Origin: an uncultured Pelagibacteraceae bacterium
GTDB taxonomy: Bacteria; Pseudomonadota; Alphaproteobacteria; Pelagibacterales; Pelagibacteraceae
NCBI GenBank assembly: GCA_902603665.1
Contig: CACKVV010000001.1
Location: 21,607 to 85,606 of the forward strand
Reading direction: 5' to 3'
Length of the DNA: 64,000 nt
Shown: piece after piece, positions 21,476 through 42,790 of the stretch
Layout: every line of letters begins with the position of its first letter
Position numbering within the stretch: the stretch's first letter is position 1
Notes under the pieces: generated by a model
The model's database searches: none
Told to the model about the DNA's origin: nothing
The model's input: only the letters and a program-made list of their open reading frames with translations
Position numbers and translations under genes: made by a program

Positions 21476-21865
21476 TACTTATAGATTTTAAAATCTCGAC
21501 TTTATGATTTAACAAAAATCTTTTTTGATCATTTAAATCATCTTTATTTAACTCTTTTTCGGCTTCTTGGATTTCATCTGAAACATGCTTTTTATTCGCA
21601 TTTTTAATATCAAAAATTGAGCTTGTTAAAATAGATAAAGTATTATCTTTAAATTCAACAATACCGTCTTCAACATAAAAATTATGTTCCTCAGAGCCAG
21701 AAATAACTTTTATGATACCAGGTTTCAAAAATGAGATAATTGGTATATGGTCCTTTAAAATTCCCATTTCACCCTCATAAGCAGGAACAACTACTTCTGA
21801 AACATTTTCTTTTGAAAGAAAAGATTTTTCAGGATTAACAATATCTATATTAAAACCTTCACTCA

Positions 21866-36056: not shown

Positions 36057-37019
36057 CTACTTCTTTAAATCTGGATCAATTGCAGATGCAGCATCCCATA
36101 GTTTTTTTACAGCCTCAATTGAGTGATCAAATTGTTCTTTTTCTATTTGATCTAACTCAATAACTTCAATTTTGTCTATTCCTTTATTATTAATTACAAC
36201 TGGTACACCTGCATAGATACCATTCACTCCATATTCTCCATTCAGATATGCAGCACATGGTAAAACTTTATTCTCATTATTCATGTATGCTTTTGCCATT
36301 TCAACACCAGAAGCAGCTGGTGCATAAAAGGCAGAACCCTTTTCTAGGTACTTTACAATTTCTGCTCCACCGTCTCTGGTCCTTTGATTAATACTTTCTA
36401 GTCTTTCCTCTGATATTTTTCCCTGTTTAACAAATTCATTAAGCGGTTTTCCTGAGATTTTTGTAAATCTTGGTAAAGGGACCATCGTATCTCCATGACC
36501 TCCCATTACCATTGCATGAATTTCTTTAACTGGAACATTCAGTTCTAAAGACAAAAATAATTTAAATCTTGAACTATCCAAAATACCAGCCATACCAACA
36601 ACTTTGTTTGTTGGTAATCCCGAGTATTTTTGAAATGCCATAACCATTACATCCAAAGGATTAGTAATACATATTACAAAAGCATTAGGTGAATATTTTT
36701 TAATTCCTTCTGCAACTTGTTTTATTATTTTTAGATTAATTCCTAGAAGATCATCTCTACTCATCCCTGGTTTTCGAGGAACGCCTGCAGTAATAATAAT
36801 TACATCTGAATCTTTAATATCTTCATAATTATCTGTTCCTGAAAATTTTACATTAAATCCATCTACTGATGAAGATTGTGCGATATCAAGTGCTTTTCCT
36901 TTTGCAATTCCACTAGCCACATCAAATAGTACAACCTCATTGGCTAATTCTTTGAGACCAATTAAATGAGCTAAAGTTCCACCAATTTGCCCTGCTCCTA
37001 TTAATGATATTTTGGTCAT
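36057..37019 (-). CDS. mdh: Malate dehydrogenase (LDH-like)
   Basis: [25 protein letters not shown] and GGHGD. Confidence 0.97.
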
Positions 37020-37020
37020 A

Positions 37021-38514
37021 TTATTTCATTGTTGGCATAACAAATTCAGGATTCATTCTTATTCCTGAAGGCCATCTAGATGTTATTGTTTTTAATTTTG
37101 TATAAAATCTAACACCCTCTGGACCATGCATATGCTGATCTCCAAATAATGAACGTTTCCACCCTCCAAAACTGTGAAAGGCTACTGGAACTGGTATTGG
37201 AATATTAATTCCCACCATTCCAACTTTAATTTTATTTGCAAAAGTCCTACCTGTATCTCCATCTCTTGTATAAACACTGGTCCCATTTCCAAACTCATGA
37301 TCGTTTATTAGATTTATAGCCTCGTCAAAATCTTTTGCTCTTACTACTGACAATACAGGTCCAAAAATTTCTTCTTTGTAAATTCTCATTTCCTTTTTTA
37401 CATTATCAAACAGACAGCCACCAATGTAATAACCTTCCTCATATCCTTGCAATTTTATATCCCTGCCATCAACAACTAATTTTGCACCTTCTTGTACTCC
37501 CAAATCAACATATCCTTTAACTTTCTCGAGATGTTCTTTGGTTACTAATGGACCCATTTCTGAAGATTTATCCATTCCTGGTCCCACTTTTAATGCCTCA
37601 ACTTTTTTTGCTAATTGTTCAACTAATTTATCTCCAACATTTCCAACTGCAACAGCAACTGATTGTGCCATACATCTTTCTCCGGCAGAACCATAGGCTG
37701 CTCCCATTAAACCATTTACCGCTTGATCTAAGTCACAATCTGACATTACTACACAATGATTTTTAGCACCACCTAAAGCTTGAACACGTTTTTCATTCTT
37801 TGCAGCTGTTTCATAAATATATTTTGCTATAGGTGTTGAGCCTACAAAACTAACTGCTGCTATATCTTTATTTTCTAATATTGCGTCTACAACTTCTTTA
37901 TCTCCATTGACAACGTTTAAAACTCCATCTGGTAGACCAGCTTCTGAAAATAGTTCAGCAAGCTTGAGTGAGCAAGATGGGTCTTTTTCAGATGGTTTTA
38001 AAATAAAAGTATTTCCACACGCTATTGCCATTGGGAACATCCACATAGGAACCATAGCAGGGAAATTAAAAGGGGTAATACCTGCACAAACTCCTAAAGG
38101 TTGTCTAATAGACCAACTGTCAATGTTAGTTCCAACATTTTCTGTAAATTCACCTTTTAACATCTGAGGAATCCCACATGCAAATTCAACAACTTCTAAA
38201 CCTCTAGTTAGTGAACCCTTGGCATCTTCATAAACTTTTCCGTGTTCAGAAACTATAAGTTTAGTTAAGAGATCAGAATTTTTTTCTATTAATTCTTTAT
38301 ATTTAAAAATAATTCTCGCCCTTTGAAGAGGGGGTGTATTAGACCAACTTTCAAATGATTGTTTTGCTTTTTGTACAGCTAAATCAAGATCTGATTTAGA
38401 TCCTAACAAAACTTCAGACTCTTGGGTGCCAGTTGCAGGATTAAATACTTTACCTTTTCTACTTGATGATCCAGTTACTATTTTCCCACCAATATAGTGT
38501 TCGATTAAATTCAT
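37021..38514 (-). CDS. mmsA: CoA-acylating (methyl)malonate-semialdehyde dehydrogenase
   Basis: [24 protein letters not shown] and EEIFGP. Confidence 0.95.
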
Positions 38515-38538
38515 TGATAAAATTGTTTAATTAAGTAA

Positions 38539-39315
38539 TTAAGTCGTTGCAAGCATTTTTTTTATCTCAGCAATAGCTTTTGCTGGATTTAATCCTTTAG
38601 GACAAGCATTTGTACAGTTCATAATAGTATGACATCTATAAAGTTTTAATTCATCAGCAACTTTTTCTAATCTTTTTTTTCTTTCATCATCTCTACTATC
38701 AACTATCCACCTATAAGCTTGCAACAATACTGCTGGTCCAAGATATTTATCTCCATTCCACCAGTAACTTGGGCAAGATGTTGAACAGCAAGCACACATA
38801 ATGCACTCGTAAGCTCCATCTAGTTTTGATCTATCTTTTTGGGATTGATGTATTTCTTTACTTTCTGATGTGGATTTATTTTTCAACCAAGGTTCTATAG
38901 ATTTATATTGTTTGTAAAGACCATCAAGATCACCTATTAAATCTTTTTTTACTTTTAAATGTGGCAAAGGATAAATGTTAATATCTCCTTTAATTTCAGA
39001 ATGTGGGGTAGTGCATGCAAGACCATTTTTACCTCCCATGTTCATTGCACATGAACCACAAACTCCATGAGCACATGATCTTCTATAAGTTATTGTTGGG
39101 TCAATCTCGTTTTTTATTTTATTTAAAATATCTAGAACTTTAGATGGACAATTATCCATGTCTACTTCGTAGGTATCTATTCTTGGTTTATCGCCTGTTG
39201 AGGGATCCCACCTATAAATGTTAACTTTTCTAATATTTTTTGAGTTAGTTTTATCTTTAAAATATTTACCTTTTTGAATTTTTGAATTCTCAGGTAAATT
39301 TATTTGAACCATCAA
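38539..39315 (-). CDS. sdhB: Succinate dehydrogenase iron-sulfur subunit
   Basis: [26 protein letters not shown] and CHTIMNC...CP. Confidence 0.98.
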
Positions 39316-41087
39316 TAAACTCTTTCTTGAGGTGGAAAATATTGGACTTCATTTGTTAAAGTTGATTTATGAACATCTCTGTATTCAATTTTAGTATTTT
39401 TACCATCACACCAAGCAAGGCTGTGTTTCATAAATTTTTGATCATCCCTTTTTGGATAATCTTCTCTTGCATGTGCGCCTCTGCTTTCTTTTCTTTGAAA
39501 AGCCGAATCGACAGTTGTTATTGCTTGACGAATTAAGTTATCGAATTCAAGTGTTTCAACTAAGTCTGTATTAAATACTAATGATCTATCTTTTACTGAA
39601 ATAGAATCCATTCCATCATAGGTTTTTCTTATTTCGTCTACTCCCTCTTTAAGATTTTTTTCAGTTCTAAAAACTGCACATTTTGATTGCATTGTTTTTT
39701 GCATTGAAAGTCTTAATTCTGCTGTAGAATTTTCACCATCTGCATTTCTTAATCTATCAAACCGCGACAAACATTTTTCAGTTTCAGTCTCACTAATTTC
39801 TTCGTGAGGAGTACCAGGCTTAACAAGTTCAGCTGCTCTTTTCGCTGCTGATCTTCCGAAAACAACAAGATCAATTAAAGAGTTAGAGCCTAATCTGTTT
39901 GCACCATGTACTGATACACATGCAGCCTCACCTATAGCCATTAGTCCAGGTACAGTTTTTTCTGAACCATTAACTGTTAAAACTTCGGCTTTATAATTTG
40001 TGGGTATCCCACCCATATTATAATGAACAGTTGGTACAACAGGAATTGGGTCTTTGGTTACATCAACGTTCGCAAATAATCTTGCTGCTTCTGTAATTCC
40101 AGGCAACCTATTTTCGATAACATCTTTATCTAGATGATTTAAATATAAATGAACGTGATCTTTGTCATTACCGACTCCTCTTCCTTCATTAATTTCAATT
40201 GACATTGACCTGCTTACTACATCTCTAGATGCTAAGTCTTTCGCATTAGGAGCATATCTCTCCATAAATCTTTCACCTTTGGAATTAACAAGGTAGCCAC
40301 CTTCACCTCTTACACCCTCGGAAATCAAAGTGCCATGTCCATAAATACCAGTTGGGTGAAACTGAACAAATTCCATATCTTGTAATGGCAATCCAGCTCT
40401 TAATACCATGGCGTTTCCATCTCCTGTGCATGTATGAGCAGAAGTAGCTGAATAGTATACTTTACCGTAACCTCCAGTGGCAATTATAGTTATATGCGAT
40501 CTAAATCTATGTATAGTTCCATCATTTAAATTCCATGCAATTAGTCCCTTGCACTGACCATCTTTCATTAATAAATCTAATGCAAAATATTCGATAAAAA
40601 ATTCTGTGTTATGTTTAAGTGCTTGCCCATAAAGAGTATGTAAAATTGCATGACCTGTTCTATCTGCCGCTGCACAGGTCCTTTGAACTATTCCATTACC
40701 ATAATTTTTAGTCATTCCTCCAAACGGTCTTTGATAAATTTTTCCATCTTCTGTTCTACTAAATGGGACACCATACTTTTCTAATTCAATAACTGCCTTT
40801 GGAGCCTCTTTGCACAGATACTCAATACTGTCTTGATCACCTAGCCAATCTGCACCTTTGACAGTATCATACATATGCCAACGCCAGTCATCCTCTCCCA
40901 TATTTCCAAGTGCAGCTGAAATACCACCTTGAGCAGCAGAAGTATGACTTCTAGTTGGAAATACTTTTGAGATACATGCTGTTTTAAGACCAGCTTCACT
41001 TAAGCCTACAGCCGCTCTTAGACCTGAACCGCCAGCTCCAAGAACAACTACATCATATTCGTGATCTATAATTTTATATGCAGTCAT
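39312..41087 (-). CDS. sdhA: Succinate dehydrogenase flavoprotein
   Basis: [10 protein letters not shown] (covalent FAD His), QFHPT and HGANRLG. Confidence 0.98.
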
Positions 41088-41413
41088 TAGTTTAAATTAA
41101 ATAATATGATAATTGTAAATAATGGAAATACTATAGCAAATAAATTTAAAGCTTTGTTTGCGGCATTTTTGATATTTTCATCACGTATATAATCTTCAAA
41201 TACCTCACTAATACTTAGAGCAGAAAAAAAATAGGCAAATATTAAAAAAATACTAACTAAAAATTTTGATGGATGAGAATTCAAGAAACTGATTACAGAT
41301 TGATAATCATTATCATAAATGGAAACAAAATTTAAAATGAACCAAAACATCAATGGTATTAAAATCAGCGAGCTTATTTTTAAAAAGACCCATTTTTTAG
41401 TAACAGATTTCAT
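41087..41413 (-). CDS. sdhD: Succinate dehydrogenase membrane anchor subunit D (heme-ligand His absent)
   Basis: Three TM segments, EDY quinone motif and sdhCDAB synteny. Confidence 0.9.
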
Positions 41414-41793
41414 TAGATTAAATTTCTCCCAATTAAATAAATTAAAATTGTTAGTATAAATGATCCAATGATTACAATAGAGCCGGTAATTTTTGTTGTT
41501 TTTAAATCAAAACCGTAACCTAAATCCATAATAATGTGCCTGATCTCACTTAACATTTGGAAGCTGAAAGACCAAATAATACCCATAACAAAAAATTTTC
41601 CAATAAAAGAGCTTAAAAAGTAATTTACCGACTTATAAGTTTCTTCGCCTAGCAACAAAGAAGAGATCCATAAACATAAAAGTGAAATAACAATTGTATT
41701 TATTATTCCCGTAATTCTTGTTGTAATTGATACTAATGATGAAATGTGCCATTTATAAATTTGTATATGAGGTGATAAAGGATTATTTTGCAT
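41413..41793 (-). CDS. sdhC: Succinate dehydrogenase cytochrome b556-like subunit C (heme-ligand His absent)
   Basis: PLSPH.QIY, S...RITG and IRH...DLG. Confidence 0.93.
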   Translation of the reverse strand: MQNNPLSPHIQIYKWHISSLVSITTRITGIINTIVISLLCLWISSLLLGEETYKSVNYFLSSFIGKFFVMGIIWSFSFQMLSEIRHIIMDLGYGFDLKTTKITGSIVIIGSFILTILIYLIGRNLI

Positions 41794-41794
41794 T

Positions 41795-42790
41795 TTAATT
41801 ATTATTTATAATAGCTTCTGCAATTTCGACAGAGTTTAATGCCGCCCCACGAAGAAGATTATCTGAAACAATCCAAATATTTAAAGAATTTTTTTTTGTT
41901 TTATCTTCTCTTATCCTCGAAATAAAAGTCTCATTTTTTCCTGCAGCCTCAATTGGTGTTGCATATCCACCATTTTCTTTTTTATCAATGACAGAACAAC
42001 CGGGAGAGTCATTTAAAACCTGTTTAATTTTATCTAAAGAAAATTCATGTTCAAATTCAATATTTACAGATTCCGAATGAGATACTAAGACTGGTATTCT
42101 TACACATGTTGCTGTCAGTTCAATTCTTGTATCCAAAATTTTTTTTGTCTCATTGGTCATTTTTAATTCCTCTTTTGTGTAACCATCATCCGAAAATTCA
42201 TCAATGTGCGGAATTATGTTAAAAGCAATTTGTTTTGTAAAATTTTTTGATTTGATTTCTTTACTTTCTAAATACATTTTAGTTTGTTGAATTAATTCAT
42301 CCATTGGAGCTTTCCCTCCTCCGGAAACTGATTGGTAAGTTGATACTATAACTCTTTTAATTTTAAATAAATCATGCAAAGGCTTTAGTACTAAAACTAA
42401 TTGTGCTGTGGAACAATTCGGATTAGCAATTATATTTTTTTTCATGTTCTGAATATCTTTTGCGTTTACTTGAGGAACTATTAATGGAACATCTGGATCC
42501 ATTCTAAAATAACTAGAATTATCAATTACTGTTGTGTGTTTTGCAGCTTTTTCTGCATACTGTTCAGAAATTTTTCCACCTGCTGCAAAGAAAGTTATTT
42601 TTGCTTTAGAAAAATCATAATTTTCAAGATTTTCTATTGAATACTTTTTTCCATTGAATTCTAATTGTTTTCCAGCGCTGTTTGGTGATGCAACCAAATA
42701 GAGATTATTAATATTTAAATTCTTTTGTTGTAAAACTTCCAAAGTTTTACGACCTACGTTTCCTGTTGCCCCTACAATTGCAATATCCAT
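41795..42790 (-). CDS. asd: Aspartate-semialdehyde dehydrogenase
   Basis: GATGNVG, NPNCST, YQSVSG and DNLLRGAA. Confidence 0.97.
   Translation of the reverse strand: MDIAIVGATGNVGRKTLEVLQQKNLNINNLYLVASPNSAGKQLEFNGKKYSIENLENYDFSKAKITFFAAGGKISEQYAEKAAKHTTVIDNSSYFRMDPDVPLIVPQVNAKDIQNMKKNIIANPNCSTAQLVLVLKPLHDLFKIKRVIVSTYQSVSGGGKAPMDELIQQTKMYLESKEIKSKNFTKQIAFNIIPHIDEFSDDGYTKEELKMTNETKKILDTRIELTATCVRIPVLVSHSESVNIEFEHEFSLDKIKQVLNDSPGCSVIDKKENGGYATPIEAAGKNETFISRIREDKTKKNSLNIWIVSDNLLRGAALNSVEIAEAIINNN

Follow-up and report, generated by a model that had tools for sequence, protein, structure and literature searches.

The window analysed here, a 64,000-nucleotide stretch (positions 21,607 to 85,606) of contig CACKVV010000001.1 from the genome of a Candidatus Pelagibacter species (Pelagibacteraceae), carries an sdhCDAB operon for succinate dehydrogenase (complex II) whose two membrane anchors, SdhC and SdhD, have neither of the two histidines that ligate heme b in the type C enzyme of E. 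coli. The four genes show the arrangement of a type C succinate:quinone oxidoreductase (SQR), being contiguous and overlapping and each coding for the expected Pfam domains (Table 1). Both anchors score above the 25.8-bit cut-off of the Sdh_cyt family (PF01127), SdhC with 92.6 bits and SdhD with 29.6 bits. From their sequences we consider it likely that this anchor, which derives from type C, no longer binds heme b, and that the operon codes for a genuinely heme-free complex II.

Table 1. Genes of the succinate dehydrogenase operon and the gene that follows it, in window coordinates.
Gene	Product	Position	Strand	Observations
sdhC	large membrane-anchor subunit, 126 aa	41413..41793	minus	intact open reading frame, Pfam Sdh_cyt 2.5e-26
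sdhD	small membrane-anchor subunit, 108 aa	41087..41413	minus	intact open reading frame, Pfam Sdh_cyt 8.3e-7
sdhA	flavoprotein subunit, 591 aa	39312..41087	minus	Pfam FAD_binding_2 4e-126 and Succ_DH_flav_C
sdhB	iron-sulfur subunit, about 257 aa	38539..39315	minus	Pfam Fer2_3 and Fer4 domains
	aldehyde dehydrogenase resembling methylmalonate-semialdehyde dehydrogenase	37021-38514	minus	follows sdhB

The remainder of the enzyme is preserved. SdhA His48 corresponds to the FAD-linked His45 of E. coli, and H244, R288, H355, and R398 are conserved. In SdhB, the 11 cluster ligands align with those of E. coli, all cluster cysteines being kept, and W186 and H229 match the quinone-site residues W164 and H207. 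Together with SdhC S27/R31 and SdhD D82/Y83 (E. coli numbering), all six residues of the proximal ubiquinone site are retained, and the four that belong to the anchors (SdhC Ser22/Arg26 and SdhD Asp74/Tyr75 in the window) are invariant or nearly so across the clade described below. An earlier reading of the same DNA, made from its letters without database searches (hereafter the sequence-only reading), had taken the quinone site, the FAD histidine of SdhA, and the cysteines of SdhB to be intact, and the alignment with E. coli agrees. The operon would represent the normal succinate:ubiquinone oxidoreductase of this Candidatus Pelagibacter species, in which electrons would leave FAD, run along the three Fe-S clusters of SdhB, and go straight to ubiquinone, bound at the preserved proximal site by the two anchors and by SdhB Trp186/His229.

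When SdhC was compared with solved structures by phmmer, its motif FSFQMLSEIRH fell on LSYHTWNGIRH of avian SdhC with no gaps in this region, so that Gln79 lines up with the ligand His and Glu83 with the Gly. We also aligned 165 related loci and E. coli K-12 SdhC/SdhD by using hidden Markov models (HMMs) derived from a diverse set of anchors from SAR11 and E. coli. In this alignment SdhC S22/T25/R26/Q79/E83/R85/H86 correspond to E. coli S27/H30/R31/H84/G88/R90/H91, and SdhD K12/F63/S67/D74/Y75 to R20/H71/G75/D82/Y83. In place of the bis-His axial ligands of type C (E. coli SdhC H84 and SdhD H71), the window has Gln79, encoded by CAA at 41559-41557, and Phe63, encoded by TTT at 41227-41225. The substitutions proposed in the sequence-only reading are borne out, both in SdhC (His84 to Gln79, Gly88 to Glu83), where phmmer and the HMM alignment agree, and in SdhD (His71 to Phe63, Gly75 to Ser67, Arg20 to Lys12), where they are given by the HMM alignment; no other histidine, SdhC H86 and SdhD H47 included, comes to lie at a ligand position.

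For SdhD, searches against the sequences of the PDB gave nothing significant, making a fold comparison necessary: SdhD alone had no match by phmmer, and a profile of the clade SdhD reached 1NEK_D at a non-significant E of 5.6, in a register that agrees with the ligand mapping. AlphaFold2 (AF2) models of SdhD and SdhC have predicted local distance difference test (pLDDT) scores of 90 and 81, respectively. The former has three long helices and one short; the latter has three long ones, and its H50-61 and H63-90 run on almost without a break. The best fold matches of SdhD are E. coli SQR chains D (template modelling score, TM, 0.83-0.85; root-mean-square deviation, rmsd, 2.0-2.2 Å), and that of SdhC is E. 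coli SQR chain C (E 7e-5), so that both anchors combine membership of the Sdh_cyt family with the three-helix SdhC/SdhD fold of type C. A prediction of the SdhC+SdhD complex (interface score ipSAE 0.39 versus 0.00 for the best control) gives weak support to what is a textbook pair and is not used as evidence; its runs have at least 96% contact agreement and a partner pLDDT of at least 68, and since it outputs no contacts, neither the filling of the pocket nor a Glu83-Lys12 contact is readable from it.

The pattern extends to a clade made up of Candidatus Pelagibacter and two sister genera, here called g8 and g9. The clade set has 118 loci (114 distinct SdhCD pairs) and takes in isolate HTCC9565, several HIMB and Uisw strains, complete isolate genomes, and many single-cell genomes. 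All 114 distinct pairs have SdhC Glu83 and no conserved SdhD His. Among the 106 distinct pairs of Pelagibacter, the SdhC ligand position is Gln in 105/106 and the residue four positions on (+4) is Glu in 106/106, while the SdhD ligand position is Phe in ~88%, otherwise Tyr and once His, with Ser or Thr at +4. Reading the same four positions in the same order, g8 has His and Glu, then Phe and Thr, and g9 has His or Gln and Glu, then Phe and Thr. Of the remaining Pelagibacteraceae, g5, g6, g7 (the IMCC9063 group), and g10 have His and Gly in both subunits, and g11 has His and Gly in SdhC, with His and Ser in SdhD. In the second Pelagibacterales family, His and Gly stand in both subunits of g3, and g2 and g4 have Tyr followed by Cys or Ser in SdhC, with His and Gly in SdhD. 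Finally, of the 28 other alphaproteobacterial families sampled, 27 have His and Gly in both subunits, the exception (G581) having Gln in SdhC only. Across Pelagibacterales and other alphaproteobacteria, then, the substitutions track clades rather than scatter, an outcome in favour of the sequence-only reading, which had proposed this test. In a wider survey of protein databases covering the best 150 cluster representatives at 50% identity, drawn from 1.8 billion proteins, the SdhC ligand and +4 residues are His/Gly in 58, Gln/Glu in 33, His/Glu in 10, and other pairs in 6; the ligand motif was not found in 43 of the 150, many of which are fragments.

A few members of the clade deserve mention. 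The g8 and g9 loci (L033-L036, L038, L041, L043, L044, L139) are intermediate, with SdhD Phe and SdhC Glu and with the SdhC His mostly kept; one g9 species (L041) has SdhC Gln, as in Pelagibacter. The sole Pelagibacter SdhD with His63 ('FFHSALTISEIFEDY') belongs to a single-cell genome (AG-891-D10, L141) and goes with SdhC Gln/Glu. Variation among Phe, Tyr, and His at SdhD position 63 in Pelagibacter is as expected for a site without heme binding.

The genome from which the window comes is incomplete (57.9%, in 48 contigs), which might raise the suspicion that the substitutions are an assembly error, or that they mark a pseudogenised anchor or a succinate dehydrogenase no longer working with the membrane. 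We regard this as extremely improbable, and the sequence-only reading had likewise not taken the changes for decay. The state is shared by the 114 distinct pairs, complete isolate genomes included, and both codons are covered by contigs from two independent marine metagenomes and two metatranscriptome libraries, with no variant listed at either codon in these four independent runs. The metatranscriptome contigs span both sdhC and sdhD, and expression of the two genes is likely, although presence in an RNA library is no proof of transcription. Moreover, pairwise ratios of nonsynonymous to synonymous change (dN/dS) are 0.05-0.17 in sdhC and reach 0.24 in sdhD, leaving aside two sdhD pairs with near-zero synonymous change (0.36 and 0.48); such strong purifying selection (0.05-0.24) speaks against decay. 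The most conserved stretches of both anchors are precisely the motifs around the former ligand positions (one being 'SFSFQILSEIRH'), and SdhA and SdhB are intact. The pattern is a fixed trait of the clade, neither error nor decay. No second anchor pair was found in the five genomes inspected, each of which has one pair.

The loss of the ligands is accompanied by further changes around the former heme pocket. We compared the 118 clade loci with 14 His-type SAR11 and 28 other alphaproteobacterial loci for fixed differences. The change from SdhC Gly to Glu83 is present in 100% of the clade. In SdhD, the fixed differences comprise Gln to Leu11 and new Met22, Tyr33, Lys50, Phe63, Ser64, and Ser69, and Arg is replaced by Lys12 in most clade members. 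In E. coli, SdhD Val19, at the position of Leu11, points straight at the heme, and SdhD Arg20, at the position of Lys12, hydrogen-bonds the distal heme propionate and forms a pseudo-two-fold pair with SdhC Arg31 (PMC3290573). From this pseudo-symmetry of the pocket, we infer that SdhC Glu83 would pair with SdhD Lys12 and replace the role of the heme propionate. The larger side chains (Glu or Ser/Thr for Gly, Phe for His), together with this likely salt bridge, suggest that protein side chains close the space once taken by the heme between the four central helices, rather than leaving a new cavity.

We could not find a conserved SdhD histidine that might act as a substitute ligand: 99 of the 114 distinct clade SdhD have none in any match column, and His does not exceed 5/114 in any SdhD match column of the clade. 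SdhD His47 was ruled out as a replacement, as it is not conserved in the clade, and so was SdhC His86, which occupies the universally conserved position of E. coli His91, a residue of the propionate and quinone network. A further change pointed out in the sequence-only reading, Thr25 in place of the His of the SdhC SxxHR motif, is present in the window but is not a pattern of the clade: it occurs in 6/110 Pelagibacter loci (before de-duplication) and is specific to the species group of the window, whereas 108/114 distinct clade pairs keep the His.

Could heme b still be bound in some unconventional way? It might be five-coordinate, or be ligated by Gln, Met, Tyr, water, or, in the sister genera, by the retained SdhC His, in which case the enzyme would still be a cytochrome of type C, its heme site being altered. 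We judge this unlikely. E. coli single-ligand mutants are reported to keep heme, and PDB 2WU2 and 2WU5 are His-to-Met ligand mutants; in the clade, SdhD Met22 is new and nearly invariant, Tyr stands at SdhD position 63 in some Pelagibacter species, and SdhC Arg26 and His86, which bind the propionates in E. coli, are invariant. However, in the present case both ligands are gone at once, and the SdhD position, occupied by Phe, Tyr, or His, is not a conserved ligand. In addition, where Gly lets the helix pack on the porphyrin there is now an invariant, charged Glu, the heme-facing SdhD Gln has become Leu, and the yeast enzyme, with a milder His/Tyr plus Glu pattern, has no heme.

The yeast enzyme provides a close parallel to a heme-free SAR11 complex II. 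Yeast complex II is heme-free by cryo-electron microscopy and spectroscopy (PMC13066397; PMC12508127; PDB 9KPS, 9KQ3, 9QDL, 9QDM). In its Sdh4 subunit the ligand His is replaced by Tyr108 and the Gly by Glu112, which stands in place of the propionate contact and pairs with Sdh3 Arg97, and the core is stabilised by extra hydrophobic residues and a phospholipid (PMC13066397; PMC12508127). Both enzymes have a type-C-like anchor of two subunits and six helices, an unchanged quinone site and Fe-S chain, and ubiquinone as acceptor, and in both an axial His has become aromatic and the Gly four residues on a Glu. The SAR11 anchors display this kind of pattern with SdhD His changed to Phe/Tyr, SdhC His to Gln, and SdhC Gly invariably to Glu, while g8 and g9, where the SdhC His is kept and the SdhD His lost, have the yeast ligand pattern itself. 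Unlike the yeast enzyme, that of SAR11 is bacterial, and in Pelagibacter both ligands are replaced (Gln and Phe). Furthermore, the Glu lies on SdhC and not on the SdhD homologue, so that the putative bridge would be a mirror image, involving SdhD Lys12 instead of an Arg of SdhC. Identity to Sdh3 is low (E 0.002), and the absence of heme is proven in yeast but deduced for SAR11.

The SAR11 operon shares with E. coli SQR (PDB 1NEK) its gene order, Pfam families, fold, and quinone-site residues, but E. coli binds heme b556 on SdhC His84 and SdhD His71, whereas in SAR11 both are replaced, along with the equivalents of Gly88, Gly75, Arg20, and Val19. An engineered heme-free E. coli SQR variant is active and supports growth on succinate, the isolated enzyme being less stable (as cited in PMC3290573); in contrast with that variant, the SAR11 pocket has conserved compensating changes. 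Complex II of Tetrahymena thermophila and Perkinsus marinus also lacks membrane heme b (cited in PMC13066397 and PMC12508127). These enzymes are highly divergent, have many subunits, and occur in supercomplexes, whereas SAR11 has a plain four-subunit bacterial SdhCDAB.

Fumarate reductase of E. coli (FrdABCD, type D) uses menaquinol and works in the reverse direction. It resembles the SAR11 enzyme in having two small hydrophobic anchors and no heme (PDB 1L0V, 1KF6), but it belongs to a different branch. The SAR11 anchors give no match above threshold to the FrdC and FrdD Pfam families: the only one, of SdhC to Fumarate_red_D (PF02313), scores 22.8 bits where the cut-off is 25, and in both fold searches SQR chains come out far ahead of those of Frd. 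The comparison also bears on the possibility that the former heme pocket holds some other hydrophobic molecule with a role of its own, either a structural lipid or a second quinone, like the one at the distal site in E. coli Frd. Additional density linked to two quinone sites is seen in the heme-less E. coli type D Frd (PMC12508127), and the heme-free yeast enzyme buries its phospholipid more deeply (PMC13066397); the sub-threshold SdhC match just mentioned points the same way. Against this, the larger side chains and the likely salt bridge suggest closure and not a cavity, and in the fold searches it is SQR chains that match best, not those of Frd. We give such an occupant little chance; it would in any case be a variant of a heme-free enzyme and not in contradiction with it.

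Since g8 and part of g9 still have the SdhC His, the loss looks stepwise rather than simultaneous, and the simplest history would have two steps. First, the SdhD His would have been lost together with the change of SdhC Gly to Glu; the SdhC His, then idle and unpartnered, would have become Gln in Pelagibacter and part of g9. The sequence-only reading had proposed a coordinated loss of both ligands leading to an evolved heme-less anchor: the comparisons above favour such an anchor, but the coordination does not hold in that form, the SdhD His and SdhC Gly having probably changed first. In a tree built on the first 390 SdhA columns, Pelagibacterales form one clade, in which the IMCC9063/g5/g6 group is sister to a clade of g8+g9+g10+g11+Pelagibacter (Shimodaira-Hasegawa-like approximate likelihood ratio test, SH-aLRT, 99).

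Several points weigh against a heme-free enzyme and the simple history proposed for it. The absence of heme from the SAR11 enzyme is deduced from sequence alone. Ligand loss need not mean heme loss, because E. coli single axial-ligand mutants reportedly can retain heme (Maklashina et al. 2001). The heme-propionate contacts SdhC Arg26 and His86 stay invariant, although this is not decisive, as the quinone-site network includes both residues and no sampled lineage departs from them. The Glu83-Lys12 pairing is putative. Lastly, the His-type genera g10 and g11 fall weakly inside the Glu-state clade in the SdhA tree, so that there may have been more than one loss, or a reversal. In favour of the simple history, a tree holding all Glu-state rows together, and with it a single origin of the Glu state, is not rejected (SdhA, approximately unbiased test, AU, p = 0.287).

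In spite of these points we favour an enzyme without heme b. Judged by its cofactor, it is predicted to be a descendant of type C and not a member of it. In the formal A-F scheme based on cofactors, an enzyme with two anchors and both ligand positions substituted would be of type D, with no relation to the E. coli FrdCD lineage.

The cell itself makes and uses heme, since ferrochelatase is encoded by complete relatives (one of them with an SdhC 94% identical to that of the window) and cytochrome b by the window's own genome. The loss may have come about through iron or heme economy, through streamlining, or through neutral drift after ubiquinone had made the heme dispensable. An iron-sparing motive is plausible, as the marine subclade would have lost the heme where IMCC9063-type genera appear to keep it, but it is limited by there being one or at most two evolutionary events and by a saving of 1/10 Fe atoms per complex. 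The full scenario, in which subclade-I SAR11 (Pelagibacter and its two sister genera) have a heme-free complex II that arose by stepwise loss under iron/heme economy and with a Glu-Lys bridge, is one that we put forward tentatively and with more doubt than confidence.

The role of heme b in type C complex II, where it is not on the path of the electrons, has been a matter of debate for decades, and it has been suggested to serve as a structural clamp, as an electron sink limiting reactive oxygen, or as a redox sensor. To our knowledge, yeast, a few protists, and engineered E. coli are the only cases in which a heme-free complex II has so far been shown, and natural heme-free enzymes were proven only recently, in yeast. 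A full-text search of a limited collection of the literature brought up no report that SdhCD of SAR11 or of other bacteria had lost heme, and neither biochemistry nor a structure of a SAR11 complex II. Candidatus Pelagibacter, the most abundant heterotroph of the ocean, probably runs a heme-free complex II. If so, it would be the first bacterial SdhCDAB to be described as naturally heme-free, and one carried by subclade-I SAR11, a large share of all surface-ocean bacterial cells. It would also be a second independent example of a cofactor pocket closed by compensating substitutions. Iron and heme quotas of SAR11 would have to be corrected for the Fe atom saved, and succinate dehydrogenase taken off the list of its b-type cytochromes. 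Moreover, the enzyme would offer a bacterial and genetically simple pair for testing the role of the heme, with IMCC9063-type relatives as natural controls. Public databases name SdhC of the window type 'succinate dehydrogenase, cytochrome b556 subunit' despite the absence of the heme ligands, an annotation that would be misleading.

Changes at the ligand positions are also found outside the clade. In the second Pelagibacterales family, five loci of g2 and g4 (L053, L055-L058; genomes G037, G038, G040, G042, G046) have SdhC Tyr followed by Cys or Ser, with SdhD His and Gly. This change from SdhC His to Tyr is independent and mirrors the His/Tyr pair of yeast; it may represent a second heme loss, or a heme ligated by His and Tyr. 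Representatives P0190 and P0207 of the database survey likewise have Tyr at the SdhC ligand position, and P0166 is another representative whose SdhC has a residue other than His there. A 1.3 Mb alphaproteobacterium of another family (G581, L165) has SdhC Gln with the Gly kept and retains SdhD His and Gly, and representative P0161, inspected for SdhC alone, also has Gln with the Gly kept; these may reflect a separate, partial ligand loss outside SAR11.

The operon is embedded in a compact cluster of central-metabolism genes (window 36057-42790, minus strand), in the order asd, sdhC, sdhD, sdhA, sdhB, the methylmalonate-semialdehyde-dehydrogenase-like gene, mdh, and sucC. Neighbouring frames of the operon meet end to end or have a few bases in common, as with the TAATG at the sdhC/sdhD and sdhD/sdhA junctions, and the asd stop is one base ahead of the sdhC start. 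This stop position and the TAATG overlaps suggest co-transcription and translational coupling of the asd-sdhCDAB cluster.

Long database matches that might have indicated a natural SdhC-SdhD fusion (P0001, P0051, P0126, P0178, P0246) proved to be assembly chimeras or to carry unrelated N-terminal extensions; P0001 and P0051 are chimeric 'SdhC' entries in which the middle part of SdhC, taken from two strains, is repeated in tandem. One 90%-identity cluster joins 337-aa Asd and 123-aa SdhC proteins, probably through a fused reading-frame call. The chimeric entries and this mixed cluster are artefacts to be taken into account when homologues are counted.

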